63,544 bases of DNA, filler included, from Folioceros fuciformis (GCA_049999805.1; 7 parts of 7 records of this genome joined end to end with filler, not necessarily neighbours in it); one strand, 5' to 3'. Shown: positions 4,211 through 48,232, numbered from the whole stretch's first letter. Numbers and translations are program-made. Notes: generated by a model not told the origin, from the sequence alone.

Positions 4211-4648
4211 CAAACAACTGCACATGTGTATGAGGCGTGAAAGAAACACGAAGCCTTATACCAGGAAGGTGACGCACGATCGTCAGGCCAGTCCTTAAAA
4301 CCTGTCACTGCATCCCGGCCGTCCGATGCCGCGCCAAACGGGTGCGATCTGCATGTCTCGATCCGAAGATTGTTCCTACCCCAACCCAGCTGTCTAGAGA
4401 TGTCCTCCTGACCAGACCAAGGCTCCTCGATGCCCTTGGGCTACAAGCCTTTTAGGCGTCCCCTCGGCCCAGGACTGCCCCGACGGTTCACGGTGCCCGA
4501 GATTGTTAAGGGTTGGTGTCCTTTGGACATGACAGCGGTTGGCCGGTAAGTCGGTTGATCGTCAACCCCGAACGTCGCGTTGCCTGGAGCGCGACGTTTA
4601 GTGGAATCCATAGCAGCCGCAACAAATCCTGACCGTCAGGCTCAGAGT

Positions 4649-4678
4649 GATCCGTGGCGGCGGCCAGCCCACCAATGG
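4649..4678 (+). promoter_or_regulatory. Plant histone-promoter type III octamer composite element (GATCCGCG-N14-ACCAATCA-like)
   Basis: GATCCGTG at 4649-4656, exactly 14 nt, then ACCAATGG at 4671-4678. A TATA-like TTTAAAA lies at ~4703-4709, upstream of the H1-like ATG at 4850. Confidence 0.6.
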
Positions 4679-4849
4679 CGAGCTCGGGGCGCGGCCACAG
4701 CCTTTAAAAGCAGCTGGAATGCGAAGTGGCGCCAAGGAATCGGGACCTTCAGAGGGTGGACACTCTGCCGAAATCGCAGCCCGCGTCGCGGAGCACCATT
4801 GTGCGGCCATGGAGCCCAGGCCAGGGGGAGAATCGGAGTGAACTCAGCC

Positions 4850-5305
4850 ATGGAAGGGGTCGCACACGCTGCAGCTCCGGCTGCAGCGCCGGTGCACCAT
4901 CACAGAAAACGGCGGCTGGGAAGCCACAGCAGGAGCAGGAGCAGGAGCAAAAGCGCCCATGGGCACAAGCGCCACAAGCACCACTCCCGGCATGGCACCC
5001 GACACAAGGGCCACCCGACCTACAAGATGATCATTCGCGATGCCTTCGCCCACATCCACAAGCGCAACGGCCTGAAGCTCAAGACGGTCATCAAATACTG
5101 CGTGGCCAAATACAAGCACCACCCGGGCGGAATACCCAAGGGCTTCCGCAAGCACCTCATGCGCCAGCTCCGCCGCGCTGTCAGAACCGGCAAGCTGGTG
5201 AAGGGCAAGACGGGGTACAAGCTCCCGCACGCAGGTGAGGGAAAGAAGAGGCGACGACGGAAAGGCTACCGCGTGGGCCGACGCCGCAGGCACAGACGAC
5301 GCAGG
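4850..5305 (+). CDS. Linker histone H1-derived Arg/His-rich protein (protamine-like sperm nuclear basic protein candidate), 3' truncated by contig end
   Basis: H1 globular (H15) domain HPTYKMIIRDAF...IKYCVAKY...KGFRKHLMRQLRRAVRTGKLVKGKTGYKL. It is flanked by an HHHRKRR/SRSRSRSKS/HKRHKHH N-tail and a poly-Arg C-tail (KKRRRRKGYRVGRRRRHRRRR) instead of the Lys/Ala/Pro tails of somatic H1. ATG at 4850 in GCCATGG context. Confidence 0.8.
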
Positions 5306-5405
5306 NNNNNNNNNNNNNNNNNNNNNNNNNNNNNNNNNNNNNNNNNNNNTTAATTAATTAANNNNNNNNNNNNNNNNNNNNNNNNNNNNNNNNNNNNNNN
5401 NNNNN
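5306..5405. other. Artificial contig-joining linker (N44-TTAATTAATTAA-N44)
   Basis: Identical 100-bp linkers occur at 5306-5405, 19287-19386, 24285-24384, 30877-30976, 48133-48232 and 59163-59262. TTAATTAATTAA places stops in all six frames. Confidence 0.97.
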
Positions 5406-5774
5406 ACCCAGATACCCCTTCCTATGTTCAAACCATTATTATATTATTTTATTATTATTTTATTATTATTTTATTATTATTTAATCATTTACTAATTTTA
5501 TATCTTTAATTAATATTAAACTAATCACCCAACCCTATGGCCTGGTACCGAACCTAAACCTTCCCAGCTCTGGGACCAAACCTATACCCACTCTTATAAC
5601 CAAACCAACTATTTCCTGGTCAATTAACCTAATTAACACACAGAAAAATAGGAAAAATGACCAGAAAATCAAGGAAAATTAGGGAAAATAAGTTGAAAAA
5701 GAAAACCAAACCATACCACTATTAACCCTTTTGCAACCAAAACAAACTACTACCCCAAACTTTGGAGGTTCACA
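5406..5774 (-). mobile_element. LTR fragment (starts TGTGAACCTC on the minus strand)
   Basis: ~5530-5774 is the reverse complement of 52240-52485, which begins with TG at an insertion junction inside a copia gag. Confidence 0.65.
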
Positions 5775-8344
5775 ATGGGAGCCCTTGAATCCGTCATTGA
5801 GTTGATTGAGTCCAACCCTCCATCCATAGCAGCGAAGAACCCCATCGCTCCTTCATGGAAACGAAACCCAATGTCTCAACGACAGTGGGATAAGTGTGGC
5901 CACTAAAGGTTAAACTTGTTGGCAAACAATGCTCAAGGTTTTGCCACCATAGTAGGCAAAAGCAGTCACAACCTACCTTTGCCTACCACCATCTCTTCCC
6001 CAAGTGCATTCACATTAGCAATCCTTCGTCTCAATATCCCTATCCCTGCCTCCCTGCATCTCATTGAAGAAGGTACCTTCATTCGTAGCAGGTCACTGAC
6101 ACCATGCACGTGGGTGGAATGCAAGTGGGGTGCTATTTGGTCAAACCAAACATTGTACACATTGTGCACTACTATCTTAGCACCTATTTAGCGTGTTTGT
6201 GGTCTACTCATGGTCTTCTAACCAAGAATGAGGTTGCAAAGAAACTTCAATCTAAAACTGAGCAACCTTGAACCCTAAAACTCATCTTGCCCACATCCTT
6301 CATCTACCTCAAAAATTATTTTGTTTTAATTGTGGCAAAAAGCTTGCTTCTGTAAAGGTTTCCCATTTTCAACATGGAATTTGGTAGAAGGTGAATATAA
6401 AATGTCTTTTCATATCTAGTAATTTAGTTATCTAAAGTCAACTCATGTTCTCTATTGTAAGTAAAGTAAAACTTATATAAATTGATACATTAACAGGCAA
6501 CATAATTGTAAAGTAGCAATTCATAATCTTAATAAAGTACCTGAATAAGAAGTATGTTGGAGTCTCGACTTAGAAAGAAACACCATGCAGCTAAAACAAT
6601 TAGTAAAATAATTGTTTGACACATCTATACGAGAAAACATAGTATTAGAAGTTTTTACACTTATATTCTACTATATAAAATGATTTTTTAACCTTTAGAG
6701 TTTGTATATTTATTCTAGTTTAGATTGTAATATCAAAACTCTCTTTTCCCCTAATTGTTTTTTATTAGCCTACATCTTAAAATCACAGTATTATGCTTGC
6801 GCACTCATTAACATTATATGTCTAGATTTTTTGCGCTCTTTGGAAGAGGCTAAAGCTTTAAATTTAGTTTTTTGTATGCAAGGTCATGTTTGAATTTTTT
6901 TTGAACAATTTCTTTCATCTTAATGAACATGTTGATCACATATATGTATTGGTTAAAACACACTAATTTTCGAAATAACAAAATATACAAATCCACTTCT
7001 ACAAATTCCATACCAAATTTGTAGAATAACACATGTAAGTCCCAACAAACCAACCAAGAACAAAGAATGCAAATAGAGGTGAAGTGGCGGGGGCGTTAGA
7101 CTACGTGGAGTAACCTTCTAGGATTGCGGTGGGAGGGTGGNNNNNNNNNNNNNNNNNNNNNNNNNNNNNNNNNNNNNNNNNNNNNNNNNNNNNNNNNNNN
7201 NNNNNNNNNNNNNNNNNNNNNNNNNNNNNNNNNNNNNNNNTCCTAGACTCGAGGCAAGGGACGATGTAGCACAAAGTCTAGAAGAAGAGATGAGGAATCA
7301 TGGCGGCGGCAAGCGGTGAGGGTCTTCTTCACTCCTAAGGAAGGACTCTAGGACGACCCGATGTGCATTACAAATGAGCTCATGTGTTCTGAGTGACCGA
7401 CATGTCGAGAGAGATGTGGGCAAGCAAGTATGGTACCCCTACCAGACACCCGCTCACATGTATCGTGGCCACGTGAATCCCATTTTTGTTGTAGGCTTCC
7501 TCGGAATCACTCCTCTCCGAGCCTGGTCCGCATCCTCCAATTGTGTCTCATTCACCTACAACATTCAACCTTCCCTAGACGTACCTACAACACATCTAGT
7601 AAGTAGGAAGGCACCATTTTGTCACTTGGAAAGGCCCTAGTGCTTCCTCCCATACCGATTTCTAACTACCTACACCCAATACCCCTTTCCTCACAAGTCT
7701 CCTAACAACACCTTCCACAATGATCCAACTGTTTGTCTCCCTACGTTCAACACTCCCGACTAGACACCACAAGAACCTTTGCGATCGGCAACAGAAAGGG
7801 CACTCGCATCTCCCCCTTCCGTTAGGATGTCAACGTAGGCTTACAAAAGTTAAATAACTACTTGTCACAAAACAACTTACAATCCAAAAAACGGTCCCCG
7901 TTCAAGTCCTTCGTTCTACTTATATAGGATTTTAGATGGCTTCATATGTACCACTAGCCACTGCTAGCTTTAACTATGCACACCTACCAAGAGGCTAAGA
8001 CATATCAACAATTGTAAGGGCAGTGCGCGCCGTTGAAGATTAGGACTATTGGCGCCGCCATAAAAGATTCGCCGACCCCCTCTCCAAAAGGGAGTGGTTA
8101 GGACTGCTCCTGAAGGGAGGCAGAGTCAGCAGGTTGAGCTATTGGGCCCTCATCCATTATTGGGATCCGTCTTCTCTTGGATCTGCAAGCTTCCACCGAA
8201 CCTTCCTTTGTGTGGATCTCTTGGGACATCCCTTCACTACCACCTACAAGTTTAGTAGGGAAGGGATCCACTTGTTCTTCAACTTGAGGTTCCTTCCCTA
8301 TGTAGGGTGAGAATGTCCCCTCCATATGTAGGGTCCCTGTTGCT

Positions 8345-8647
8345 CCCCTCGCAAAGAAGGTTCCCTACCCCTTCCCTCGTTGGTAGGTTCCCAACCCCTT
8401 CCCTCGTAGGTAGGTTCCCTACCCCTTCCCTCATAGGTAACCTTTCCCTACCCCTTCCCTCATAGGTAACCTTTCCCTACCCCTTCCCTCATAGGTAACC
8501 TTTCCCTACCCCTTCCCTCNNNNNNNNNNNNNNNNNNNNNNNNNNNNNNNNNNNNNNNNNNNNNNNNNNNNNNNNNNNNNNNNNNNNNNNNNNNNNNNNN
8601 NNNNNNNNNNNNNNNNNNNCCCCTTCCCTCATAGGTAGGTTCCCTAC
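8345..8647. repeat. Minisatellite, ~29-bp unit CCCTTCCCTCATAGGTAACCTTTCCCTAC
   Basis: Several adjacent copies either side of an N gap. Confidence 0.9.
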
Positions 8648-9166
8648 GGGAGTAGATCCCTCTTGTCGCGTGCTCTTCTTAGCCTAGGGCAGCTCCTCAT
8701 GTTCCTATTGCGATCTCTCTAGGTCCATACTATTTTCCTCTTGAAAGTCTGTTGGTAGGGGCACTGCCTCCAAGGCCTCACGGTCGTCATCATGTGGCCC
8801 AAGATACCTTCGCCTTGCCAATGCTGCCAGTTCCTGTCAAAGTTGTGGAAGCATGAAATCTAAATAGATAATAATCAAAGTATTACAAAATTGGTTTTTA
8901 AAGGTCTAAGACTAACCCTGGTTAGTTAACCCATCTCTGGTTAAATAACCCATGTTGGATTAACCCCATTAATACCCCCACTTAAGCTAACATGCTCGGG
9001 GCATACACTGTTAACAAACTACGGCTAAGTACATAACACTAGTTCCAAAAGACACATCCCCTCATTATACTAGCACGCGCAGACACAACATAAGAGACAA
9101 GGAACCGTAGGGCTTCAACCAGAATCGCATGAAGGCGATGCGTTGGCACAAAACATTCAGAGCACA

Positions 9167-9718
9167 ATGCCGCCAAGAACAAGAAGCCGTGGAGCCACAT
9201 GCCAAGGAGTTTCTCAAGATGAGGCGCCTGTCACACACCCACCAACAACTCCAGCACCGCCTACTTCAGCAAATCCCGAGCTATGGACACACCCTACTCA
9301 AGCTCTCCATGGTTTGCGAGTGAGGTGGTGCGAACGATTTGGGATTGTGCAGCAGAGGAGGAGGGATCCAGTTTGCAACCTGCTGCCAGTGTCACCACAC
9401 TTGACCCCATTGACAACTCGGCAAAAGGAGGAAGAGGTGAACAGAAGGTACATACACCGATATCTGGCCCAAAACTCAAGCAGCAGTAGTGCCACCATCA
9501 ACTCTCAGCTGCAGGTAGTCCTCACCAACATAGCAAAGGCAACTAATCTTCTCAAAGCCTAGCAAGCTGAAGAAGATGATCAGCAGTCCATTGTTGAGGA
9601 AGATGTACCTACTCAAGTAGCCCCACAATTTCCATACAGAAGACAACAATGTTGGGTCTGTGCTAGGCAGGATGGAAGGTGCATTGTGTGTGGTAGAAAA
9701 TATCACAAGGAGATCTGA
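9167..9718 (+). pseudogene. Degenerate ORF antisense to the gypsy pol, with a C-terminal Cys/His cluster
   Basis: MPPRTRSRG...ATNLLKA*(TAG 9560-9562) continues in frame as QAEEDDQQSIVEE...QCWVCARQDGRCIVCGRKYHKEI*. Confidence 0.4.
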
Positions 9719-10082
9719 CAGCAAGCAAGTAAGACTTTTCTTCACTAGTCACATCTAGATTTATGAACGACAGCTTCATCCCCTGACTAGGATACTCACT
9801 CTTACATGGTTTCTCACAGGCGTGGACACAGGAGACAGAACCACAAGGACACAAACAAGCCCCAACAAATAGAAGAAGTTAGAAAGCTACAGTGCTGTGT
9901 TTTTGACAATCATCCTGTTACAATAAGTAGAAACATAAGACGAACTACAGAATAGGGGAAAGACCAAATAGCACCAGACAAGTAACTTATCATGGATATG
10001 TAAACTCTCATAACCCTAAAGCTGCAACATGTTGGAAATGGCGACTCCTCAACAACCCTTTCGTAAGAATGTCTGCAGTGTT

Positions 10083-10807
10083 GTTGTCGTGCTAAACAGC
10101 GTCAACTTGATCAATCGACTAACAATCAGCAGCATTGTGTAAAGAAGGCAAATTCCAGTGGTCAAGAACATGACCTTGAGTCAAATGGGCGTCCATCAAA
10201 CAAAATAGTAGCCCTTGCAAATCTTGATCACACTAAGACAGCCAATCACTCATGCTCACACTGCAATGCAACCCATCAATGATTTTTCACTCTGATTATG
10301 AGCAGTGGATTGACAAGTAGTTCCTTGGCCAGCCCGCAGGCTTAGGCTCAACGAGAGAACTTCTAACAATTGCGGGATTGAGCCTAGAAGTTCAGCACTT
10401 ATCTGTCACGTTGCTCCTGGCCGTTACCCCCCAGTCCTCCTCTTCTACACCGTCGCCATGCCGCCCATGCTTGAAACCTCTCCACCGTTTCGCACAATGA
10501 TAGTTCTGAACCCTAAACGGGTCACACGTTCCCTACCTAGCCATCCCTGATCTAATTAGGCTATCCCTGATCTACCTAATTAGATTAATTATATTTAATT
10601 GATTAATTAGGTACCCTAATTAATCAATATGGCTTGACAGTTGTCATGCTAAACAGCGTCAACTTGATCAGTCGACTAACAATCAGCAGGAGGCAAAGAA
10701 GGCAAATTCTGAGCTCTCACTTCCTAGCTAGTCCAGTGGTCAAGAACATGACCGTTAGTCAAATGGGCATCCATCAAACAAAATAGTAGCCCTTGCAAGT
10801 CCAGATC
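10083..10807. repeat. Direct repeat pair (~10083-10228 and ~10641-10807) next to a G13 polypurine tract (minus strand 10807-10819); candidate 3' LTR region of the gypsy element
   Basis: Both copies contain TGCTAAACAGCGTCAACTTGATCA.TCGACTAACAATCAGCAG...CCATCAAACAAAATAGTAGCCCTTGCAA. The C13 run on + lies ~100 bp past the pol end. Confidence 0.6.
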
Positions 10808-10921
10808 CCCCCCCCCCCCAAGTGTGGTGATACTTGGCGCCAACACTGTAGTCAATTCTCGCTTAAAGTGAATTGAGTCCATTGAGCTCTCGGATCAGTG
10901 GTCCCTGTGGTCCCTGGCTCG

Positions 10922-11065
10922 TCAGAGATGGCAATACCACAGGTTCTCTAGCACTTCAGTCAGTGGTGGCTGAAGGCAAAACAAATGAAAACCTCCATTG
11001 CAGCCGTCACACAGCAGCATGAGCTCTGGATCATCAATCCATCTGCACACTTGACATGGGTAATC
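10922..11065 (-). pseudogene. PHD finger at the C-terminus of the gypsy integrase
   Basis: DYPCQVCRWIDDPELMLLCDGCNGGFHLFCLQPPLTEVLENLWYCHL* fits the C4HC3 pattern, with a stop at the last Cys position. Confidence 0.9.
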
Positions 11066-11136
11066 AGCTAGAGGGATCCAATTTGCTGTGACCAGCGTAG
11101 GATCTAAGTTGGGTAGATGACAAGGGGCGCAATTCT

Positions 11137-12149
11137 TCATGTGATCAGTGTTGCCCTCCCATCTGATCCTTCCAGTGACAATACTCCATTCCTGCGCACC
11201 TCTCGCACCCGTAACACGTCTGCTGTGCTAGTTTCCAATATATCCTGTGTTTGCCGTTGCAGGTAAACGTAGTCCCATGACTGAAATTTCCTAACCTTGG
11301 GGTGGAAGCTCCCACTTCTAATGTGAGCGTACCTGAGCGTATCACGATGTTGGGCTATCCTGAGGTTGGCCATGGCCATTGGCATCACCTGTCTAAATAA
11401 GGCTGCACGCTCCCAATGGCCTTGGCCCATGCCGCTGGGTCATCCAAGCTCAGTACCTCCTACATCTGTCAAGCAATGGCCATAGGTGGTACTAGCTCTC
11501 TCCCAAATAGAAGGAAGTAAGGTGAGAAGTTGGCCAATGATGCATGCCTGCTCATTTTGTAGCCCATGGCGATATTTGGCAAAGCCAAGTCCCAATCTGT
11601 CTTAGGCTTGGTCAGGCACAGCTTCCTCAATGCCTGTTTGATAGTTTGCACCATCCTTTCGGCCAATCCATCTGCCTGGGGGTGATCACGACTGGTGCGA
11701 CGGTGATCAATGAGCGCAGCATCCAACAAGTCCTAGAACTCGCCCCTGAATTCAGCACCCTGGTCAGTCAAACATTCGGCGCTGCTCCCAAATCGGCTAA
11801 GCACATTATGTAAGAATGCTTGAGCTGTGCTGCGTGATGCCTTGTCTGGTAGCGCCACCAACTCCACCCACTTGGAAAAATGTTCAATCATGACCATGAT
11901 ATAAGCATTTCCACGCAGTGTGCACGGGAATTCCCTAGCCAAGTCACAGGACCACCTGAAAAACAGTCCCATGATGGGCAATGGCTGTAACTCTGAGTGA
12001 GGGTTGCTGAATGAAGCCTTGACTCTATCACATTGGGCACACTTGGCCACTTCCTCGCGCACCTGTGTGAGCATGTCATGCCAGTGAAAGTGAGGAAGAA
12101 GCAAGCTGTAGGTGCGCTTCACACCAAAGTGACCTAAGTCCTCATGCAC
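11137..12149 (-). pseudogene. Gypsy integrase (HHCC and DDE core, interrupted)
   Basis: ORFs 11733-12149, 11469-11729 and 11137-11430 carry the HHCC zinc motif, WSCDL, TDQGAEF, GLAERMVQTIK and SPYFLLFGR. Confidence 0.92.
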
Positions 12150-12320
12150 CTTGTGAATCAGCCCTGCACGCTCCTATGGTGGTGGCACCAATTGCTCAGT
12201 CCCATTGTTCAGTCTTCTCAGCAAAAAACAATCCCTCCACTCATAGCGGGCTGCTCTCTGCTGCACCTTCTCTTGTTGGTGTGCATCCAGACTAGCATCC
12301 ATGTGTCCAGTCTTCACATA

Positions 12321-13897
12321 CTATAGCGTGGCTTTGTCACTCCACACATCCTTGTGTGGTTGGAAGCGACTGCTGGTGCAACCTTGTACCACGCATAGCA
12401 TAGTCAACAAGGCTGCAGCATTAGGTACCTCCTCCATGTCATTGTCCTGATGAGCATCAGTGTTGTCCTCACTACTCTGCCCAGAATGGCAGGACAGTAC
12501 ATCTGCATTCTGGTGCTTGGTTCTAGGCCTGTGGACCACCTCAAACTCATAATCTTGAAGTATGATGGCCCACCTTGCAAGCTTTCCGCTAAGCTTGGTG
12601 TTGGACATTAGCCACTTCAAAGGCTGATGATCTGTCACCAGTGTAAACTTTCGCCCATACAAGTAGGGTCGAAAATGACAAATTGCCCACACGGCTGCAA
12701 GCAACTCTCCTTCATAGATGGAGAAGTTTGCTTCTGCCCTGTTGTTACTTCTTGAGGCATAGGCAATGACCCTCTGTTGACCTTCAGCATCCACTTGTAC
12801 TAGCACAGCTCCCAGCCCCAAAGTATTCCAGTCTGTATGGAGAACAAATGGTTTGGCAAAATCAGGCTAGGCCATAACTGGCATCTACATTAGTTTGCTT
12901 TTCAAGCTTTCAAATGCAGCTTGACAGTTGTCTCTCCAATCCCACGCTGTCTCCTTGCGCAACAGGTCATTTAGAGGTTTAGCAATGCTGCTAAAGGTCT
13001 GTACATAGACCTGTAGTAGTTGCACAACCCTAAGAACGCCCTGAGAGTGGACACATTGGTCGAAGCCTGAATCTGCTGGATTGCCTAAACCTTGGCAGCA
13101 TGTGGTGTTATGCTATCTGGTAGGATCCTGTGCCCTAGATAGGCCACTATATCCATGGCGAATTCGCACTTGGCTGGGTGGCACGTGAGCTGAGCCTTTC
13201 GCAGTCTTTGAAACAAGTCCTCCAGATGGGTTAGATGAGTGTCAAAGTCCACGCTGTGGACTAGCACATCATCTATGTAGCACAGCAAGTGAGGGGCCCC
13301 TGCCAATACCTTGTCCATGACCCTTTGGAAGGTCATTGGTGCATTCTTGAACCCAAAAGGCATGACCAGCCACTCCCACAGCTGGTGGGCTCCATGAAAT
13401 GCTGTCTTGGGTATATCCTCCTCTGCCACCGGCACTTGGTTGAAACCTTGTCGCAAATCCAACATGGAGAAGAATTTGGACTGTCCGATGTTGTCGAACA
13501 GCTCTTCCGGTGTAGGCATGGGATACCTATCAAGTGCTGTTGCTGCATTGATGGGACGATAGTCCCCACACATCCTCTTTTCAGTCCAAAAGCCTTGGCT
13601 GTCCTTCTGTTCTTTTGGTGGAAGAACAGTAGCGGCTGCGTAATCAGAGTTGGAAGGTCTGATCAATCCAGCCCGATACAGGTCTTGGCAGCATGCTTCC
13701 ACAATTTCCCATTCATATTGGCTCAACCTGTACCTGCGCTTGTAGATCGGTTCAGTGGTGTTGAGGTTGATCCTGAACTTCATGACGTTGCACCTCTTCA
13801 AATCCTTCATGCTGAAGGCAAAACAGTCCGAGTATTGCGAAAGCAGGGCATGAATCCGCTGTTTCTGCCTTGAGTCTAGCTGGGACCCATAATCCAA
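12321..13897 (-). pseudogene. Gypsy reverse transcriptase and RNase H (stop and frameshift between them)
   Basis: YIDD RT motif in ORF 13085-13897; RNase H motifs IAYASR, EGELLAAVWA and LVTDHQPLKWL in ORF 12321-12821. Confidence 0.95.
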
Positions 13898-14124
13898 TCA
13901 AAGGCCTCTGCAGTGGGTGGAGGTTTGACGAGTGCTGACAATCCTGATCCTGAATCCAGCTCCGACACAACAAAAACAAGTTTGGGAGACTTGTGCTCCC
14001 CCCCCCTTGCGTCGAGCTAATAGGACAAGTAACAAAATCCTGGGAAAGGTAGATGAACTGCATCCGGGTGACAAGACAGGGTCTGGATGTGGGAACCCTG
14101 ATCTTGAGGTCTAGTGAACACTTG

Positions 14125-15090
14125 GAAAGCCAAACAAAGGCTAAGTAGACACGTCAAAGCACTCACATCCATAGCACGGCCAAGTGCTGCAAATCTCTGT
14201 GCCCTGGAGGTTTGAGGTGTTGCTGTACGGTGAGTGTGAAACCCCATTATCTGTTCCCTCTCCTCCACTGTGGGCTCCTCCCTCACCTTTGTATCCTCAT
14301 TAAAGAGCATGCTAGGTCCGTTATTCCTGTATACATATGAGCCAGGATAACTGACCACTATAGGCAAAGTCTTCCTTGGTTGACCTGGTGTGTTGGTAGG
14401 AAACCATGGAGCCCTCTCCTTGGCTGTGATTGGCTTGGGCGTGTGATTGTTGTCCAGCACGTCTTGGAGGAGTTGAGTGGGGTCCCGCTGTTGCTGCTGT
14501 AAGGCCAAGTTCAAAACAGGCAATGGGGCAAGATTTGTCCAGTAATTCCTAAGTCTGTGAGCATAGCTGCCCACCTGGGCAGCATCCATGGTGAACGGCG
14601 TGCCAATGACCTGCTAGATGACACCCATGTCTTGTCGTAACCATGGGCGAGTGTCCAGTTGAGCTGGTGTGTTTTCCAGTAAGTAAGCCACTGGTGGGTG
14701 CTGATCTTGGAGCCATCGCAGCACTTGCACCAGATCCCTAAATAAGCCTGAACGATTGTTGTGCAGCCTTGCTCCTTTCCCAGCTTGGAATAGACCCTGG
14801 CACTCCCATCCTGCAATTAGCAGATCCACAGTCCCAATAGCCTGGACGTGTGCTTGCTGGATATACCGGATGTTTTGTGGAAGAGCACTACACATGCTCG
14901 TGCTGGCCTGCCGGGAAAATTGCTGAGGGTACTGCTGCTGTAGCAAGTGCACTCTATAGGCTGCAATGTGCCTAATAGCTGGGCAGGCATCACAGTAGAT
15001 GTATTTGGAAACAGTGATGCCACACTTGAGCACTGCCTCTAGACTAGTGCACAGGCCCCCAAATAGCTCCACCAAGGTAATCCATTGTAG
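14125..15090 (-). pseudogene. DNMT3-like C5-cytosine DNA methyltransferase domain embedded in the gypsy pol
   Basis: Motifs in canonical order: I LVELFGGLCTSLEAVLKCGI; IV DLLIAGWECQG (catalytic Cys codon at 14800-14802); V RSGLF; VI YLLENT; VIII DAAQVGSYAHRLRNYWTNL; IX EEREQIMGF; X QRFAALGRAMDV. Same frame as the protease ORF, broken only by single TAG codons at 15205-15207 and 14614-14616. Confidence 0.9.
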
Positions 15091-15204
15091 TGTAGCTTGC
15101 CACGTGATGACAGCTTGTTGGATAGGAGAAACATTTGTTGTCTCTCCTGTAGCTGGGTCAGTAAGAGCCTGCCGCAGTACTTGCATGACACGAGTGACAG
15201 TCTC

Positions 15205-16359
15205 CTAAGCTTGTTGTAGACGCCCCTCGCTAGCTGTGAAGACTCCAGATGGGACCTGGGAGTGCAGTTGCGCTCCTAGTGCATCTTCTTTAGGGGCGGG
15301 GACAAGAATGTCTTCGTCCTCCCCACACTCAGCTAGCCATACTTGAGTACGGTGGTCTGGTGGTAATGAGGGCATCGTCACATCCTCGCATGTCTGGATC
15401 TGCACTATGCAAGCTTGCCTTACCACCAGTGTGGCCTCGGCTGCTTGTGTGGTGCCATGCAAATCCAGTTGCAGGTAAGCAATGCGCTTTCCCCCTTGCT
15501 GCCAACCTGGCCTGTAAAAGGCCTGTTCTGTCCAGTTGTCAATAGAAACTCCCGGAGGGAACAAAAATTCCTGTCCCAACAAATTGTCATAATTGGTGGC
15601 TCCTATGACTAGGTAGCGCACCGTCAAGCTCACCTCATCCGCTGTGTTGGGCTTCAAAGTGATCTTGACCGATTGGGGTGTTTCACCTTTGACAGGCTCA
15701 ACCGCTCTTGATGCTGTGCGAATATTCCGAGGGGACGGCTGCAAAGCACTACCTTCCAGTCGCAGCCTGGCAGCTAGAACCTTTCCTATGATAACTGGTT
15801 GTGCTCCCATGTCCAACAACACTGGTCTAGGCACAAACCCATTCACCAGCACGTGGCTGCCACGGTTGTCCACCAGCACATTGCCAATTGTGGCTTGGTG
15901 CCGATTTGTGGGTTGTACGACTGGCAAACCCTGACTTTCACAAGCAGGTAGTGCAGCTTGCACCCTCTTGCTTGCAACAAGTGAATCCAGCCCCGACTAA
16001 TCAGAGCAAGACAGTGGGATCTCAGCCGGTGAAGGTTGCAACATGATACCCACAGTGTCTTCTTCAAGCCCCACATCTTGCAGGCTAAGTAAGGGTGCTT
16101 TGTGTACCCTCTTCAGTAGCTCCTTGTGCGTTAACACCATAGTCAATAATTGGACAGCTTGATCAGACTTAGGTGTTTCCGGCTTGTGGCGCTGGCTGGA
16201 AACTTGGTCAGCTCCTTGTTCCACTTGATCTCCCTTAGGCAAATGGTCTGCCCCTCTTACTGGTACGTTGGACCCTGGTGGAACCTGCTGGAATGACCTA
16301 GGCATTGCAGCCCTAGCACCCTGCTGCCGTGTAGTGACCCTAAACCCTAAACCCTTCAT
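15205..16359 (-). pseudogene. Gypsy aspartic protease region
   Basis: VLVNGFVPRPVLLDMGAQPVIIG...YDNLLGQEFL. ORFs 15997-16359 and 15205-15963 share one frame. Confidence 0.8.
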
Positions 16360-17947
16360 CAGGGTCAGCTGTTGTTTTGATAGTCACCAATTCCACCACA
16401 CTGGCAGACTTAGCAGCATTCAAGCTGGCTGCCAATGTGCTGACCTGAGTGGTCAACGCTGCCATGGCTGTCTCTAGGGCTGTCAATTTGTTAGCCTGGG
16501 CAGCCGTCTTCTACTGATCCTTGTCACGCTTGACTTGGCTCTTGCTGATGGGACTCCCTCCTGAAGCTGCTCCTGCTGAAGCACTTCCTGAACCACTCGC
16601 TCCTGCAACACTGTTAGGCTTAGTGGCAGCGGTAGTGGTAACACTGGAGCCTATCCCTGTCTTCCACGGTCGTCGCTCTGGATATTTTGAAAAACAAACC
16701 ACTTCAACGTGGTCAATTTTCTAGCAGTGGGTGCAACGTGAGGAGTCAGCAACCACCTTACATGCAGGCAAAAGATCGTCAGCACTGCCACACCTGTTAC
16801 AAAGTGTGCTGACAATAGCTGTTGCTCCGGCCTTGGTGGGCTTAGCCTCCCTGCTCTTGCTGGCAACGCCTTGGGTGATTGACAAACTGCCCTTCCCTGA
16901 AAACATCTGTTGGCAGTGGTGAAAGGCTTTTGAATGCTAAGAAGCATACACTGAGAAAGCTAGTTCCTTTCTCTCCACTTCTTGGTAGACCTGATCTAGC
17001 ATGTTGTTGTCACCATACTTGTCAACTAAGGTGGTAAATAGCTGATAGTGAAACAATGGATCAGTCTCCAAGGCAGCCAGAAACTTTTGAGCCGCCTCTT
17101 GGTCGGTCAGCATGCTCGTACCATCTCTTAGCTTCTGCAATCGTCTAAAGGCCATCTGGATAGTCTCACCCTTCTTGCGTGCAAAGGCTGCAAGCTCCGC
17201 AATCTTCTCCGGAGTCTTGGTTGGAAAGGCTCTGTCCAGGATCACAAAGAAATCCTCCAGGGGATTGTCGTGCTTGGGCACGTCCAACTTGTCCGGGATA
17301 TCAGTTGTAGCAGTGGCCATTTCTTGCTGAGTCATATTTACCATCGTAGGTGGTGGGATTGATGTGGCAATAGTGCCAGCTACAATCCCTGCTTGGTGAG
17401 TGGCCACCGCAGTGGCCAACAAATTGTTGTATGCCACTTGAAGGGTTGCCGTGTAAGCATGGTTGAGATTTCCTACCACTGCCAACATTTCCAATGCATG
17501 AATCTCAAACAGGTCCAGGGCTTCATCAGCTAGATACCCAGGAAGCTGTTCAAACATATACCTATGAGTATATGCAGCTTCATGCTTAAACTTAACGCGA
17601 CTGGTTAAAAAGCCATAGAACAACTTGAAATCCCTGAGGGTCTGCGTCCCTGGCCTGCTAGAAAACTTTTCATACTTGTGAACAGGTGCCCTCGATCCCT
17701 CCATGGTATCAGACTCCTCGAACTCCTTTTCCTCCGAACTGGTGTCACCACTGATAGTCTGAACAATGTTCAATAGAGGCAACCAGCTCACTCCTACCGC
17801 CCTAGCAGGTCCAAATACTTCCCCAATGCTACTCTGGTCTGTGACACACTGGCTAGGGTGTTGATCACTTGACTCCTCAGCTAGTATCTGTTCTGGTGAA
17901 CTAGGCTTGGCAGCCATTGACGACGTGCCCTCCGCCAAGGTACCCAA
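16340..17947 (-). pseudogene. Gypsy gag-like region with zinc knuckle
   Basis: ORFs 16937-17947, 16721-16906 and 16511-16702 are one frame split by stops. It contains FARKKGETIQMAFRRL (gag-like) and CTHC*KIDHVEVVC (CCHC knuckle). Confidence 0.7.
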
Positions 17948-19387
17948 GATCGCCGTGGAACGGTCCTACTCCTCAGATGGTAGGCTGGCTCATCGTCACT
18001 CCCATTAGATTGCAAATATAGTCCATGCAAAAACCAAACAAGGTCGGTGATTAGCAGCGATTTAAGAGAAATAGAAATGTAAGAGTGCACAGCAACCTGT
18101 GCCTACTGACCAAATCTGACTCTCTGCTAGACCATCATCAGGCCCACGCTGTTGACAGCCAAGTGTCCACTATCCTGAAGTCTCATTCACTCAGGGTCTA
18201 GACAAACCAATACTTACAGCTCAGTAATCAGCGTACCACCCTCAACCAGACATCCAGCAAGGTGAATATCCTGTCCTTCTCTTAGCTCACCAAAACTTTA
18301 GCACGGTGAGCCCACACCTTGATCCTAACAAAGGAGGGCGGGCATCTCTCTGTGCACACAGCGAGAACCATATATGATTATCGACAAAAACTCACAGCAC
18401 ACCCAATCAATGGCCACAAAGTTCAGGACAGTTGTTGGAAGTGGCTTCACATACAAAAACGTAATCACACAGCTTCACGACATTTTCCAGTGGTGTCCAG
18501 CCAGGGCAATTCTCTGCATCAACTGACTGACACTCACTGCTACCAATAGACGTTACTGCATATATCGGTGTCCCCACGAAAACTTCACAAGTGTTGATGC
18601 TAATCCCAGTGATGTCTCCCACCAACAACATCAGCAAAGCTCGTTCACGCCCTCAGAGCCTGTGGAGTGATTTCTTGCACCCAAGAACCTCCCAAGGGGC
18701 CACACATTCCCCTATTGTCGTTGCAGTCCTATGGTTCGCTCCCAAGGGAGTGAACTAGTGCCAAGGAACACTACCTATCACACTTCTACCTATCAGCCGG
18801 TCTATAGGTCTGTCCATACACTCACAACAAAAGGGCTAGAAGCCTAGCCTACCCCCTAAGTCAGCTCACCCAACTCACACTCCTGTTCTTCAGTCCTCCA
18901 GCTCTTCTTGATTCCCACTTCAGCCACTTCCTCCTTACTTCAGTCCTCCAAGATTCCCACTTCAGTCCCTTCCTTTTCACTTCAGTCCTTCACCCTCCAC
19001 TTCAACACACACTCCTACTCTTCAGGAGCTCACTCTTCACTTCTATGCATTCCACTCCAACTCTTCCTCTCTTTTCTTCAGCTCTTCCCCCCTGGAAATT
19101 AGGGCACAATGGCTTCACTTCTTGCAGCCTTCAAGCATAGTATGGATCTAGGACTAGATAGCCCTTCAGCTCACGGTCCTGTTCCTTCACTTCAGCCAAC
19201 CTGCGATTCATGTAGCCCTTGCGGATCCGGCCACACGGATCTTGACAGCCCCGGGATCCCCACGTTCCCCTAGTGGCAAGGGGAATNNNNNNNNNNNNNN
19301 NNNNNNNNNNNNNNNNNNNNNNNNNNNNNNTTAATTAATTAANNNNNNNNNNNNNNNNNNNNNNNNNNNNNNNNNNNNNNNNNNNNA

Positions 19388-19530
19388 GGTGGTGCCCAAG
19401 TGGCGCCCAGGTGGTGCCCAAGTGGCGCCCAGGTGGTGCCCAAGTGGCGCCCAGGTGGAGCCCGCATGGCGCCCAAGTTGCGCCCGCGTGGCGCCTGGGT
19501 GGTGCCCAAGTCGCGTCCGCGTGGCGCCCC
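19388..19530. repeat. GC-rich 22-bp (2x11) tandem repeat in a copia 5' leader
   Basis: AGGTGGTGCCCAAGTGGCGCCC repeats lie downstream (minus strand) of the PBS at 19575-19586. Confidence 0.85.
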
Positions 19531-19574
19531 TCCCCCTCCTAGATGGCCATCTTCATGGTCTTGCTCCACAACCT

Positions 19575-19940
19575 GCTCTGATACCACTTGTAGGATCACT
19601 GGAGGAGCATGGTGGAGGAGAGGAGAAGAGGAGGCAGAGAGGAGACGAGAAAAAGAGGTCACATTGAGAGTGGTTGGCAAGGGAGCTCAAGGAGGTATTT
19701 ATACCCTCTAGAAGAGCTCCCTAGGAAGCTTCACAAGAAGCTCACAGGAAGCTGCGCAAGAAGCTTCCTACAGATTAGCTTAAGCTAATCTAAACTAATG
19801 ATACTTAACTAGACACTAATCTTAGACTAAACACATTAGTCTAAGCACATTNNNNNNNNNNTAGTCTAAGCACATTAACTAGACACTAATCTTAGACTAA
19901 ACACATTAACCTAAGCACATTGGGCTTTAATAACCCTACA
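19575..19940 (-). mobile_element. 5' LTR (19589-19940) and tRNA-iMet PBS (19575-19586) of a family-A copia element
   Basis: TG..CA-bounded and homologous to the LTRs at 35885-36180 and 40389-40696. Followed on the minus strand by TGGTATCAGAGC. Confidence 0.9.
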
Positions 19941-20724
19941 CTAGTGACTTCATCAGTCCTGAAGTTTAGCGACCCAAACTACCAGTCATATCCCTAGTCT
20001 AAGCTGTTTTCTTCCACACTATTTACAGCCACACTTGCACGACTACCAAAGGAATCAGGCTCAGAGGAATCAAGGTCATGTTCGGAAGGAGTGGTGAAGC
20101 TCTCATCCGATCTTGGAGAGTTTCTCTTCCTACGCTCCATGTAAGAGATCCTCTCCTCAGTCTCAAGGCTGTGCTCTTCCTCCAGCCTTAATTCAGATCC
20201 TGCAGGGCAAGTGGGAGCTTAATAGGGAACTATGAGAAGAAAGCAACGGAGATGCTGGCACAAACAGTAGACCGGGCACACTCACTGTAAAAACTGACCA
20301 CATGGCGCTCAAACTCGCGGCAGTGTTCTATCCTCACTCGCACCATCTTCAGGTGGGTTTAAGGGCACTTATACCACAGAGGGGTAAAAGGAATAGCAAA
20401 AGAACCAAGGCTCACAATCTTGGTTTCCTCATCAGAGTGTGTTGGAACTGGAAATCTTATCAGCACAACAGGCCTATAGTCAGAATCAGCATACGCAAAC
20501 TCACTAGCTTTGAAGCGGAGCTTGTCACAGTGATCCGTTGAAAGAGACTTCTCTTTAGGGGTAGCTGTCTTGCAGGGAGCTCCCTTACACGCAGTGCCAA
20601 CCTTTGTCTTATAGGCTATAGCCTCTGACGAGCGCCGCTAATCAAGAAAAGCTTTGGTGGTGCCGCTTGGCCTCCCTCGCGAACGCCTTCCGCCTCTGCC
20701 ACCTTGAGCAGCAGGAGTAACCAT
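19941..20724 (-). pseudogene. Degenerate intron-containing gene with an N-terminal AT-hook, cut by the copia LTR
   Basis: The frame from ATG 20724 reads MVTPAAQGGRGGRRSRGRPSGTT...MVRVRIEHCREFERHVVSFY. A GTGAGT donor and CTGCAG acceptor lead in consistent phase to SELRLEEEHSLETEERISYMERRKRNSPRSDE. Four in-frame stops. Confidence 0.45.
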
Positions 20725-20798
20725 CTTTGCCGGTCCTTGCTGCTGAGAGGAGGCGGCTGTTTGAGTCGGTTTGTTCAAAAACTGCCCTAGCTTGTCAC

Positions 20799-23700
20799 TG
20801 TTGAGTTATCGAGCTCTATATGAGCTAAACTCATGTGGTGTTAGTTACCCCGGTTGGGTTCATACTAGACTAGTTCTAGTTATTAATGAACTTATGATAG
20901 TGTAGATTATCCCATGTTGAACCTGGAAGTTGTGTAGCCCTGAATGTACTACTTAAATGGGGACCTCAGACCTCCACAGTAAAACAGTGGTGACATGTAT
21001 TGTTTTTTGGTTGTGACCACCAATACCACCCTCTCTTCTCTCCTCTCCTCTCCTACACTTGCACATAGACTAGAGTTGATCCTATTGAAATGGTATTAGA
21101 GCTTGAGAGCCCGATTGCCAAGCGTAGCCTAGAGCCGGAGAGCCAGGCGGCTACACCTAAAGGCGGTGCAAGATCGGCGTAGGAGGTGCTGCAAGAGTGC
21201 ACACCAGGAGCTCGAGCATAGGAGGTNNNNNNNNNNAGGTGCTGCAAGAGTGCACACCAGGAGCTCGAGCATAGGAGGTGCTGTAAGAGTGCACACCAGG
21301 AGCTCGAGCAACTACGAGGAGTTGGAGCAAGCGTGAGGAGTTGGAGCAAGCGTCCCGGCAGCTAACTCTCACATCGGTGTGTGCAGGAAGTGAGGAGAAG
21401 GGCAACAGGGCCCTGTCGGCTTGCTGGACAGGCTGTTGATCCTCAGAGTCCTGTGAAAGGGTTGACAGGTGGAGGCAACAGCCGCAGCAACCTCAGCAGC
21501 TGCAAGAAAGTGTGCTAACCCTAGCTTGGCAGCAAGGAAGGAATTGACAGGAAATCTCACGGGAGCTTTGTCTGGAAAATTCTGTAGGAGCTTATTCCAG
21601 CAAAATCTGCAGGTGGCCGTAAGTTGTTTCGGCTAGAGGCTGTGAGCAGACTGTCAGAGTCTGTAAGGACACAGAGCATGAGACAATCTGGTTCACGCAA
21701 GGCAGCGTGATTCCGCACCATATTGCTCTCAGGAAGCAGAGACTTAAGGTTTTGTGAGTAAAACTCTAGTCAGAAGGAGTCTGGTTCCTGCAGACATTTA
21801 TTAGGTGTGAGTACTCAAGAAGGATTGAGTGTCAACCTTGAGTGGTGGCAAGAATGGCCAGTGACAATATTAACTAGATCGTGTAGGAGAAGCTGGACAA
21901 AAACAACTTCCATGCCTGGAAGTTTCGTTTTACAAATTGTCTTATGGGAAAGGGTTATTGGGACTACATTGAGGGGGAGCATGAAAAACCCCCTGTAGTA
22001 CTTGAACGGAATGCAATAGTGGAGCATATTAAAGCGTTGAAGGATTGGAGTCAAGGATCTCGGAAGATCATGTATTGGCTGTCAATCAGCATTCATGACA
22101 CCATGATTGGGCACATACATGATGCAGAGTCGCCCAAAGAAGCATGGGATGAGTTGGTCAAACTCTATGAGACCAACACGAAGGCGAGGAAACTGTAGTT
22201 GAAGAATGACTTCAACACAGTTATGAAGAAGAACTTGACAATCAATGAGTACGCGTTAAAGATCAAAGAGATAGTGGAATCTCTTGCATCCATTGGTGTT
22301 AGTGTGGAAGATGACGACAAGGTCGAAGTTTGCTTGCGCGGGTTAACACCTGCCTATAAGAAGTTCAAGACTTCCATACAGACTCGGGAAAACATTCCCA
22401 ATTTCTCAGACTTGATTTCTATGTTGATCATAGAGGAGAAAAACCTAGGGCGAGGAATCATTCTCTAAGCCTAAGGAAAACTCTGAGCAGGCCGTCTACT
22501 CTAGTAGAGGCAAAGGTAGAGCCCAAGGTGGCAGAGGGCAAAGAGGTGGTAGAGGTCGGAATCCCTACCAAAATCAGCAACAGAATTAGGAGTCCCAGTA
22601 CAAGAGTACACGTGGAAGAGGAGAAAATTCTCGAGGCTGGGGGAGTTGAAGAGGACGTGGAAATCAACAACAAAATGATGCAAATGCAGACAATAGTGGT
22701 TGCTGGACTTGTGGTAGGTTAGACCACTTCAAAAGAGACTGTCCACGGAGAAATCAAGGCAACATGAGGCAGCAGAACAATTATGCCTCTAGCAACAGTC
22801 AAAATGACTCGGACAACATGTTTGTCATGCAGCATATGCTTAACTCTATGTCTGCTATTGGATCCACCAATGGTGAGATTGTGTGGTATGCGGACTCAGG
22901 AGCTTCGAACCACGTGACATGCCACGGGGAATGGTTCAAAGAAATGCAGGTGCTTGACAAACTTGGATATGTGGAAATTGGAGATGACACAACACATGCA
23001 ATTGTGCATACAGGAACTGTACCTATGAAGATGCAGGATGGCAAAGTGAAGTGCTTGGTCGATGTTCTTCACATACCCAACATCACAAAGAACTTGGTGT
23101 TAGTTGGGCAGATGGTTGAGCAAGGACTGCAGGTTAGGTTTAAACCTGCAGGACTCTTTGTTGAAGAGTGCAAGAAAGACGGTCGCCTGATTGCTCAAGG
23201 ACAAAAGGTTGGACGGATGCTCACCTTGAACGTGGAGGTTCCTAAGCTGAAGTTAGCCATGTTTGCGAAGGGTACAAGGGTAGTGACAGACCTAGACATG
23301 TGGCACAAACGCATTGGACATGTAAATGTGCAGAAGTTGAAGTCCATGCAGCATCAGAAGGTCGTCACAAGCATATTCAAGCTTATAGAAAATGGACTGC
23401 AAGGTGTATGTGAAGCATGTTAACTTGGGAAACAACCTAGGAATGCATTCCCCCATCACAAACATGTCAACAGACATGTGTTGGATGTTGTGCATTTAGA
23501 TGTATGGGGTCCTACACAGACTGCATCAATCGGAGGATGCAACTACTATATGAGCTTCATTGGTGACCACACAAGGAAGGTGTGGGTCTATTTCATGAAA
23601 GAAAAAAGTGGAGTGATCACTCATTTTCATACTTTCAAGGCAATGGTTGAGAACCAGACAGATAGGCACATCAAATGCCTAAGATCTGATGGAGGGGGAG

Positions 23701-24284
23701 AGTACTTCTCCAGAGAGTTCAGCAAATTCTTATCTGAACAGGGCATTCAACGGCAATACTCATGTCGTTATATGCCACAACAAAATGGAGTTGCAGAGCG
23801 CAAGAACAAGCACATAGCACAAGTGGCGAGAGCATTGATGACAGAGAAGATGATGCCTCACTACTACTGGGCTGAAGCTGTAAACACAGCGGTGTACATC
23901 ATGAACAGAACTCGCACAGCAGCGGTGCATAGTGTAACACCGGAGGAGAAGTTCACAAGGAAGAAACCCGACTTTTCACACTTAAAGGTATTTGGTTGCA
24001 TTGCTTATGTCCATATTCCGGATGAATTGCGGACTAAGCTTGATCCAAAAGCAGAAAAGTGTATCTTTATTGGGTATTCTGTTATACAAAAAGGATATAG
24101 GTGCTAGAATCCTAGTACACAAGCTATAAGAGTAAGCAAAGACGTAGTCTTTGATGAAATGGCTAGCTGGTACTTTGAAGTACAATCAAGTGGTGTAGCT
24201 GATGTGCATGAAACTGAGGTAACAAGCAATGCAAGTCAACAATCACAAGTGTTGAGTGGACCGCAAGCGTCATCAAACTCGACA
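20799..24284 (+). mobile_element. Degenerate Ty1/copia element (LTR ~20799-21088, PBS 21091-21102, gag-PR-INT from 21854), truncated at contig end
   Basis: Mutated PBS TGGTATTAGAGC; gag EKLDKNNFHAWKFR; WYADSGASNH; WHKRIGH; LRSDGGGEY; PQQNGVAERKN. 39-bp tandem repeats in the leader at ~21180-21312. Confidence 0.92.
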
Positions 24285-24618
24285 NNNNNNNNNNNNNNNN
24301 NNNNNNNNNNNNNNNNNNNNNNNNNNNNTTAATTAATTAANNNNNNNNNNNNNNNNNNNNNNNNNNNNNNNNNNNNNNNNNNNNTCCATGCTTCCGCTAA
24401 CATGGTATCAGAGCAGAGTTAATCTTAGTGATTTTTCTGTCTATAGGATCTTGGGATGGTGTTTGTAATTAGCACGTCTTAAGTTGGATTTTCCATGTTT
24501 CTTATGCATTATTTTATGTAGTCATAAGAGTACAGGATTATGATTTTCCGGATGTTTGGATAGTGTCCAATCTTTTGATGGGTAGTCGGATGTGTAGTGT
24601 TTTCTGTCAGGATTTGTG

Positions 24619-25113
24619 ATGGCTCGAGGCAGGCAACGGTATTCATATGAGCCATTGCCACAATTTTTGATGAGACATTTTTCTCATAAAAATTGTATGT
24701 CAGAAAGGCCTGAGCCATTTCGTGCACCTAATAGGCCAGCCACATACCTGAGGAATTATTATCCACCAGCATATTCTGGAGAGAATGAGAGAGCTTTTCT
24801 GCATTCTCAATTTCAGCGATTTTTCTGTAAGAAGAAATCCAGGAGCAAGGTGGCAATTCCAACACTACAGCATTTGATTACCCGGCTTGACACTGCTGTA
24901 TCCTTGTTACTGCGAGTTCTGGAGAATCAACGGGTTGAGGCGCTGCAGCTAGATGAGCTATCGTTGAAGATTGCAGCCCTGAGTGGAGAACGAGCAAAGA
25001 CACAGAATACAAGTCATAATTCACCACAGAATTGGATTTGTACGTGTTCCATGCGTTCCTCAGCGGCGCCGGATTCCCCTTCAGCCCGCGTGCCGATGCC
25101 CAGGCACATCTAG
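24619..25113 (+). CDS. Extra upstream ORF (~164 aa) between PBS and gag of the copia element
   Basis: Open frame with a heptad-like segment LQHLITRLDTAVSLLLRVLENQRVEALQLDELSLKIAAL; no recognisable family. Confidence 0.4.
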   Translation: MARGRQRYSYEPLPQFLMRHFSHKNCMSERPEPFRAPNRPATYLRNYYPPAYSGENERAFLHSQFQRFFCKKKSRSKVAIPTLQHLITRLDTAVSLLLRVLENQRVEALQLDELSLKIAALSGERAKTQNTSHNSPQNWICTCSMRSSAAPDSPSARVPMPRHI

Positions 25114-48132: not shown

Positions 48133-48232
48133 NNNNNNNNNNNNNNNNNNNNNNNNNNNNNNNNNNNNNNNNNNNNTTAATTAATTAANNNNNNNNNNNN
48201 NNNNNNNNNNNNNNNNNNNNNNNNNNNNNNNN

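Follow-up and report, generated by a model that had tools for sequence, protein, structure and literature searches.

Can a retrotransposon encode a DNA cytosine methyltransferase of its own as a regular part of its polyprotein? This question is raised by a 63,544-nucleotide (nt) stretch of DNA (hereafter the window), in which an element on the minus strand, from about 17917 to 10895, carries a methyltransferase-like block in its pol region. Cytosine methylation is the main transposon-silencing route in green organisms, and a transposon with its own de novo methyltransferase therefore reverses the usual picture. We interpret the locus as a decayed, non-autonomous copy of a multi-copy Ty3/gypsy-type retrotransposon, whose polyprotein (Pol) bears a DNMT3-like C5 cytosine methyltransferase (MT) between protease (PR) and reverse transcriptase (RT) and a PHD finger after the integrase (IN), and assign this interpretation a probability of roughly 0.7.

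The element's domains follow one another in the order gag, protease, methyltransferase, RT, ribonuclease H (RNase H; RNH in domain orders), integrase and C-terminal PHD finger, all on the minus strand. In Pol, the aspartyl protease domain lies at 15562..15852 (residues 178-274 of P0001; PF13650, E 2.6e-5; PF13975, E 4.7e-5) and the methyltransferase domain at 14101..15093 (~330 amino acids (aa)). These are followed by RT at 13124..13582 (PF00078, E 8.9e-31), an RNase H of Ty3/gypsy type at 12549..12863 (PF17917, E 4.2e-38), an integrase with an H2C2 zinc domain and an rve catalytic core at 11469..12170 (PF17921, E 5.9e-13; PF00665, E 6.2e-11; PF13683, E 0.0045) and the PHD finger at 10925..11056 (PF00628, E 8.5e-11). 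The Ty3/gypsy-type order PR-RT-RNH-IN is thus present, with gypsy-type RNase H and H2C2 integrase, and the methyltransferase is placed after the protease. Upstream, a gag-like region begins at a Met at 17917 and stays open to 16235 (16235..17917) only when TAG is read through. Its open reading frame (ORF) at 17965..16937 matched no Pfam family; the region is 35% identical to the N-terminal part of the relative P0182 (tblastn, 17677-16670) and contains a degenerate CCHC-like knuckle near 16801-16760. A Ty3/gypsy-type element in which protease and RT flank a DNMT3-like C5-methyltransferase of non-permuted motif order, as described in the original prediction, is borne out by the Pfam map and the structure-database search below. 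That prediction had also placed protease and methyltransferase in one frame broken by three single stops; the minus-strand frame 16383..14017 agrees, being interrupted by TAG at residues 129, 393 and 590 and closed by a further TAG.

To place the methyltransferase, we used a 396-aa translation of the block with its stop codon read as X (P0002), in which the domain occupies residues 38-368 and motifs I, II, IV, VI, VIII, IX and X occur in normal order. A phmmer search of P0002 against PDB chains returned DNMT3A, DNMT3B and DNMT3C as the top 29 of 47 rows (best 6brr_A, E 6.5e-9), with a match spanning query residues 44-253 and 314-353, corresponding to motifs I to VIII and then IX-X, again in normal order. 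M.HhaI and DRM2 reached E-values of 0.14 and 0.87 in the same search. A family profile of 36 members (A1; the window and 35 short relatives) sharpened this picture: against solved structures it matched DNMT3A at 9.4e-25, DNMT3B at 5.4e-21 and DNMT3C at 8e-21, compared with 7.9e-13 for tobacco DRM, 1.8e-9 for Arabidopsis DRM2, 2e-9 for M.HhaI and 1.7e-3 for DNMT2, and no DNMT1 was found at E<=0.01. The profile aligns to DNMT3A in three collinear stretches and to DRM in separate parts only; the motifs are therefore not circularly permuted, unlike those of DRM. An AlphaFold2 model built on A1 had a mean predicted local distance difference test score of 86.4 and a predicted template modelling (TM) score of 0.84, and in a Foldseek search of this model against the PDB all matches listed (ranks 1-49) were DNMT3A/B/C (E 7e-17; TM 0.77-0.81 on target). 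Judged among solved structures alone, the predicted methyltransferase is closer to DNMT3 than to DNMT1/CMT, DRM, DNMT2 or the bacterial classes. It shares with the mammalian DNMT3A/B/C catalytic domain, its best sequence and fold match, the motif order and a short VIII-IX region, but is only ~20% identical to it, lacks ADD and PWWP, has Glu-Cys for Pro-Cys and sits within a retroelement polyprotein.

Matches to PF00145, the Pfam family of these enzymes named in the original prediction, gave a mixed result. A match was present in the window copy, but it was borderline at 21.9 bits against a gathering cut-off of 22.0 (E 1.4e-4) and covered motifs IV-VI only. Relatives cleared the cut-off (P0220, 50.2 bits; P0007, 45.5; P0108, 31.6). 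The window copy retains the catalytic Cys, the ENV-type Glu and both Arg of RxR, and has Glu in place of Pro before the Cys ('GWECQ', motif IV). The motif IV variant of the original prediction, with its Cys, was recovered, as were motifs I, VI, VIII, IX and X in order.

The methyltransferase is not peculiar to the window. A HMMER search of the block against 1.84 billion cluster representatives matched 1,536 library proteins at E<=1e-3 and 225 at <=1e-30. The best relatives are 35-43% identical, and many are 1,200-3,500 aa long. Two domain orders recur among them, which we name type A (gag-PR-MT-RT-RNH-IN) and type B (RT-RNH-MT-IN-PHD). Pfam recovered CCHC-PR-MT-RT-RNH-IN in P0220 and in the Closterium proteins P0236, P0237, P0230 and P0108 (strains NIES-53, -54 and -65); P0220, P0236 and P0237 are uninterrupted ORFs with CCHC-PR-MT-RT-RNH(-IN). 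RT-RNH-MT-IN-PHD was recovered in P0003, P0010, P0014 and P0016. Among 239 domain-bearing proteins, searched with pieces of the window as phmmer queries, 28 showed PR/gag-MT or MT-RT (type A), 158 RT/RNH-MT or MT-IN (type B) and 53 MT alone; this sample comprises top hits and cluster members and is neither random nor non-redundant. The window itself is collinear with P0181 (MT 42%, RT 54%, RNH-IN 50% identity) and with P0182 (gag 35%, PR-MT 39%), as well as with P0087 and P0220. Together with the same order in uninterrupted relatives, this collinearity upholds the earlier proposal that the methyltransferase belongs to Pol and is not a random insertion.

Phylogenies of the two domains point the same way. 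In a FastTree tree of the methyltransferase (173 sequences, 339 columns), the window shares a clade with 14 of 15 type A proteins (support 0.969), leaving P0184 outside. In the corresponding RT tree (89 sequences, 262 columns), the window groups with all nine type A proteins (support 0.954), and 73 of 78 type B proteins make up the other clade (support 0.957). By sequence, the window element is a member of the type A clade. Because the two trees agree, each domain order represents an element lineage of its own and not a set of sporadic captures. A PHD finger can occur in either lineage, which fits a methyltransferase that was acquired once, long ago, and later changed its place; alternatively, it may have been captured twice, from related donors.

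Known relatives of the window element are of both types. The Closterium proteins have the same domain order and fall in the same RT clade, but their methyltransferases are only 31-34% identical to that of the window, they are filed as 'unnamed protein product', and no PHD finger was detected in them. Type B polyproteins, such as Haematococcus lacustris KAJ9527864.1 (P0014), those of Chlamydomonas eustigma and the metagenome locus L001, share with the window a common methyltransferase family (34-41% identity), a C-terminal PHD finger and gypsy-type RT, RNase H and integrase. They differ in having the methyltransferase between RNase H and integrase and in forming separate clades in both trees. 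L001 was one of 62 loci returned by a metagenome scan with the family pattern, among which it (E 4e-55, type B) and L002 (1e-19) are clear relatives, the other 60 lying at E 2e-9 to 1e-4. At 1400-7483 of L001, type B is present as one 2,027-aa ORF, and no terminal repeats were found there. Type B, with its methyltransferase between RNase H and integrase and its C-terminal PHD finger, is the more numerous of the two orders; its named hosts are Haematococcus lacustris, Chlamydomonas eustigma and Chromochloris zofingiensis.

The PHD finger of the window has its best PDB matches in the PHD fingers of KDM5/Lid, BAZ2A/B, WSTF, UHRF1, ATXR5, AIRE and PHF21A. Most PHD fingers of that set read unmethylated lysine 4 or arginine 2 of histone H3 (H3K4, H3R2). 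A chromatin reader fused to the integrase of chromoviruses and REM1-like elements is thought to steer integration; to our knowledge, neither chromoviruses nor REM1-like PHD-bearing long terminal repeat (LTR) elements have a methyltransferase. The fusion of such a reader to the integrase C-terminus is thus shared with chromoviruses and with PHD-bearing LTR elements such as REM1 of Chlamydomonas (cited in the available text of PMC6673714).

Several observations weigh against the proposed identity of the element. Neither an LTR pair nor a primer-binding site or target-site duplication was found at its flanks, and the label 'LTR retrotransposon' rests on protein domains for that reason. No PHD finger was detected in the 28 type-A-like relatives, which are mostly incomplete proteins. 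The window copy missed the PF00145 gathering score by 0.1 bit, and its affinity to DNMT3 rests on solved structures and not on a tree with host DNMT3, DRM or Klebsormidium sequences. Both FastTree trees were midpoint-rooted without an outgroup. In the window and in 107 of 172 relatives, Glu and not the near-universal Pro precedes the catalytic Cys. Finally, the sole published test of a Klebsormidium Gypsy Dnmt3 domain, in yeast, gave no methylation, a result called inconclusive in the available text of PMC5890265.

That last study also shows that the kind itself is not new. A Gypsy Pol with a Dnmt3 domain, KnitGypsy-Dnmt3, was already in print for Klebsormidium nitens (de Mendoza et al. 2018, PMC5890265, to which the statements on KnitGypsy and SymbioDIRS below refer as far as its available text goes). 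The window element is a further, dead example of the kind first described in this green alga in 2018. Both are multi-copy, have an intronless, non-permuted Dnmt3-type domain in a Gypsy-type Pol ORF and keep key catalytic residues. They differ in host, and the likeness is one of description; the words 'PHD' and 'protease' are absent from the main text of PMC5890265. The DIRS-like repeats of KnitGypsy-Dnmt3 are half-matched here, by a 3' direct-repeat pair for which no 5' partner was found. No Klebsormidium protein occurred among the 90 and 150 matches listed for the methyltransferase family. A Dnmt3-type domain also lies inside Pol in SymbioDIRS-Dnmt3 of Symbiodinium, the only retrotransposon methyltransferase for which de novo CG methylation has been shown (PMC5890265). 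That element belongs to the DIRS group, encodes a tyrosine recombinase, resides in a dinoflagellate and represents an independent acquisition. In the literature searched, as far as its text was available, retrotransposon-borne DNMT3 is reported for Klebsormidium and Symbiodiniaceae only, with a 2026 preprint mentioning 'streptophytes (Gypsy-DNMT3)'. Neither the chlorophyte type B family nor the Closterium copies are described in the main texts so covered, and the Glu-Cys variant and the PHD pairing are absent from them too. New here are the family size (225 representatives below 1e-30), the two domain orders, which are kept apart by both the MT and the RT tree, and the Glu-Cys variant.

In which organism the element resides is evenly balanced. 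The window is a chain of separate scaffolds: six gaps (5306-5405, 19287-19386, 24285-24384, 30877-30976, 48133-48232 and 59163-59262) have the form of 44 N, TTAATTAATTAA, 44 N (N44-TTAATTAATTAA-N44), a spacer with stops in all six frames, and adjacency across them is therefore artificial. The element's scaffold, 5406-19286, is tied to its neighbours by such spacers only. Every named carrier of the family is a green alga (Closterium, Haematococcus, Chlamydomonas eustigma and Chromochloris), Closterium being the only one named for type A, and the nearest relatives of the window domain come from metagenome or run assemblies. A streptophyte or other green alga as host, or a contaminant scaffold, either of which would remove the land-plant novelty, has about the same chance as a land plant on this evidence. 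On the other side, further scaffolds of the window carry plant-type Copia elements with DUF4219 and Retrotran_gag_2, and an apparently intact mTERF exon at 1700-2400 (plus strand; PF02536, 2.5e-41) has its best named matches in angiosperms, at 39-46% identity compared with 30% for a chlorophyte. This plant-like gene is on another scaffold than the element, given the spacers. The scaffold of the element ends in a repeat that is extremely abundant in sequencing runs of the same organism from two studies, which argues against a rare contaminant. A search with a Copia polyprotein gave no guidance on the host, with 6 matches at 26-29% identity. Copia, mTERF and repeat evidence does not separate bryophytes, ferns and lycophytes from charophytes. 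The land-plant novelty claimed in the original prediction is thus not established, with all named relatives being green algae and the scaffolds joined by spacers.

Whether the domain would act on DNA can be approached through its residues. Among 172 non-identical relatives, all keep the nucleophile Cys, the ENV-type Glu, the first motif VIII Arg, the motif I Gly and the Ser of 'C-Q-D-L-S', and 171 keep the second motif VIII Arg. Immediately before the catalytic Cys, 107 relatives have Glu, 53 have Pro, 5 Ser and 4 Asp, with another residue in 3. 'GWECQ' is therefore a family trait and not decay: the variant and its retained Cys stand as originally noted. It is improbable, if still worth weighing, that the domain is a pseudo-enzyme or acts on RNA, its fold being kept for nucleic-acid binding or Pol architecture without DNA methylation. 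Such a role would suit the Glu before the Cys in the majority of relatives and the Klebsormidium domain that gave no methylation in yeast, an assay called inconclusive by its authors because human DNMT3B failed too (PMC5890265, available text). The near-invariance of the catalytic residues across diverse relatives (171-172 of 172) is instead the pattern expected of a working C5-methyltransferase and not of a scaffold. Canonical Pro-Cys is moreover present in 53 relatives, and two SymbioDIRS-Dnmt3 domains do methylate CG in yeast (same text).

The copy in the window is dead. It has 17 in-frame TAG and two TGA codons, at least three frame changes in pol and losses at 10 of 67 conserved methyltransferase positions, in line with the earlier statement that it is defunct and that a frame change lies between methyltransferase and RT (frames -2 and -1, respectively). 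With TAG translated as X, five frames are open: gag at 17989-16235, PR-MT at 16383-13807, RT at 13897-12971, RNH-IN at 13241-11469 and PHD at 11341-10922. There are therefore at least three frame changes in Pol, with gag in a further frame; the change from MT to RT falls within 13807..13897, where both frames are open. Counted over non-overlapping frame segments (2,312 codons, 10925-17989, minus strand), the stops are 17 TAG, no TAA and two TGA, and one TAG lies within the methyltransferase domain at 14616-14614. At the 67 methyltransferase columns of >=80% conservation, the window keeps the family residue in 57. The lost residues include Ser139 to Phe, invariant in all 172 relatives, Thr282 to Ile and Gly298 to Ser. 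A TGA at 10924-10922 cuts the PHD finger where its last zinc-ligand Cys is expected, and all sister contigs differ there at the third base; past it, the frame runs for 8 more codons to the TGA at 10897-10895, the Pol stop.

The stop codons are skewed towards TAG, which makes up 17 of 19, whereas a generic mutation model on the element's codon content gives 47%. CAA codons (73) are as common in the element as CAG codons (74), and the observed/expected CpG ratio is 0.35. In our own reading, the excess reflects C-to-T decay concentrated at CAG, i.e. CHG-context methylation. Decayed Copia copies in the window have mixed stops (TAG 7, TAA 5, TGA 4). At two of the TAG codons (13087 and 16513), sister contigs have C as the first base. 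Two other mutational sources were ruled out: APOBEC-type TGG-to-TAG editing, as relatives show Trp at none of 10 aligned TAG positions, and RIP-like CpA-to-TpA mutation, as no TAA occurs though 73 CAA codons remain. We consider it highly improbable that TAG is read as sense or read through and the copy less dead than it looks. The predominance of TAG and the absence of TAA would fit such decoding, as would the C in sister contigs, a synonymous difference if TAG encoded Gln. However, TAG is absent from the window's intact Copia ORF despite its 57 Gln codons, which rules out a host-wide TAG=Gln code, and the decayed Copia copies carry all three stops. Nor would sense decoding repair the frame changes in Pol or the lost methyltransferase positions, including the invariant Ser, and a tRNA scan detected no tRNA gene within the window.

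Diverged sister copies exist in sequencing runs of the same organism. Contigs of three public runs from two studies (X1, X2 and X3) were aligned to 9500-19200 at >=80% identity, yielding 1133, 1247 and 71 contigs, respectively, many of them on the flanking high-copy repeat at 18572-19200. X3 is perhaps an RNA run, and its contigs are therefore not read as a sign of transcription. Within the element, individual positions have 5 to 10 different contigs over them; since assembled contigs were aligned and not reads, their depth does not translate into copy number. One contig of 1359 nt, with 163 differences, runs from the protease into the methyltransferase (14542-15894), and a 3965-nt contig joins PHD, IN and RT parts. 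Contigs of all three runs have a shorter replacement inside the 90-nt overlap at 13807-13897, with a length change not divisible by three, whose phase puts MT and RT in one frame. No joint removing just the methyltransferase block was found among the sister contigs. Might the block be unique to this locus, either as a piece or pseudogene of a host DNMT3 that landed in a gypsy element or as a chimera of the assembly? An element not delimited by LTRs and the frame changes on both sides of the PR-MT frame would be in keeping with such an origin. It is contradicted, and most improbable, given the same domain order in uninterrupted ORFs of relatives, MT and RT trees that yield the same clade and contigs from two studies that bridge PR into MT, and a nested insertion of a host gene was rejected likewise; nor does the window contain any other copy or fragment as candidate donor.

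How might intact copies of the proposed methyltransferase-bearing retrotransposon use their enzyme? The methyltransferase would be translated within Pol, next to RT, and would then either stay attached to RT or be released by the protease. Its substrate could be cytosines in the newly made copy of the element or in the DNA where it integrates. The integrase-linked PHD finger, likened to readers of unmethylated H3K4, may guide the element to chromatin of that kind. In host DNMT3, an ADD domain is paired with the catalytic domain; an element with an H3K4me0 reader on its integrase and a DNMT3-type enzyme would follow a similar logic. The pay-off might lie in self-marking as 'host-like' methylated DNA, in self-limitation or in protection of the cDNA; ideas already published, as far as the available text shows, are that the cDNA marks itself as host-like, that it is shielded from deaminases or that the element limits itself. 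A more far-reaching version, which we regard as rather unlikely, has an embryophyte host and would make this the first land-plant retrotransposon family with its own DNMT3-type methyltransferase, a streptophyte branch of an ancient green-lineage-wide 'self-methylating' gypsy group that pairs an H3K4me0-reading PHD finger with a de novo methyltransferase, the CAG-to-TAG excess recording heavy and possibly self-written CWG methylation. Klebsormidium is the only streptophyte case in the searched literature, to which the window adds a further host with a multi-copy family. It also opens a view on a large, little-described green-lineage family with two domain orders and invariant catalytic residues, in which 107 of 172 members have Glu-Cys and a PHD finger recurs. 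These many natural sequences can be used to ask for enzyme activity, sequence context and what a retroelement gains from methylating DNA, and if the host is a land plant, the family matters for plant epigenetics too.

At its 3' end, the element continues past the Pol stop for ~75 nt to a run of 13 G on the element strand (10807..10819, minus), a candidate polypurine tract by its sequence. A 3' tail follows (10083..10807, minus) with two direct repeats, 10640-10807 and 10083-10229, which are ~78% alike over 171 columns and ~410 nt apart. These repeats resemble the 3' 'B-A-B' of a DIRS-like layout (A-coding-B-A-B), but self-BLAST and local alignment found neither a 5' match to them nor a 5' copy of the stretch between them. 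The 5' leader (17918..18571, minus), in which no LTR was recognised, abuts a very high-copy repeat starting near 18572. Repeat finding on 8000-21000 and 1-30000, self-BLAST and local flank alignment gave no LTR: the best flank-to-flank local alignments score 23-28 compared with a shuffle maximum of 30, and on the 5' side the sequence passes into the high-copy repeat before the scaffold ends. In X1 and X2, a single contig each links 10806/10807 straight to 18442/18543, skipping the coding part; this joint could be a deletion derivative, an end-to-end junction or a homopolymer assembly effect. The adjoining repeat (18572-19200) is CT-rich, and its summed contig depth, in the thousands for X1 and X2 and in the hundreds for X3, is far above that of the element.

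An Rfam scan of the window gave no matches. Apart from the mTERF exon, the only host-type gene seen is an ORF with a linker-histone domain at 4559-5353 (plus strand; PF00538, 3e-7), also on another scaffold than the element. At least six Copia-type elements or fragments are present, at 54894-58577 (minus), 22650-30017, 36430-40033, 43145-46129, 49865-52288 and 60611-63542; one Copia element has an uninterrupted 1,228-aa gag-PR-IN-RT ORF, and the others show mixed stops and frame changes. Tandem repeats occur at 19387-19540 and 8361-8519, with units of 11 nt (GC-rich, 11 copies in register) and 27-29 nt, respectively.

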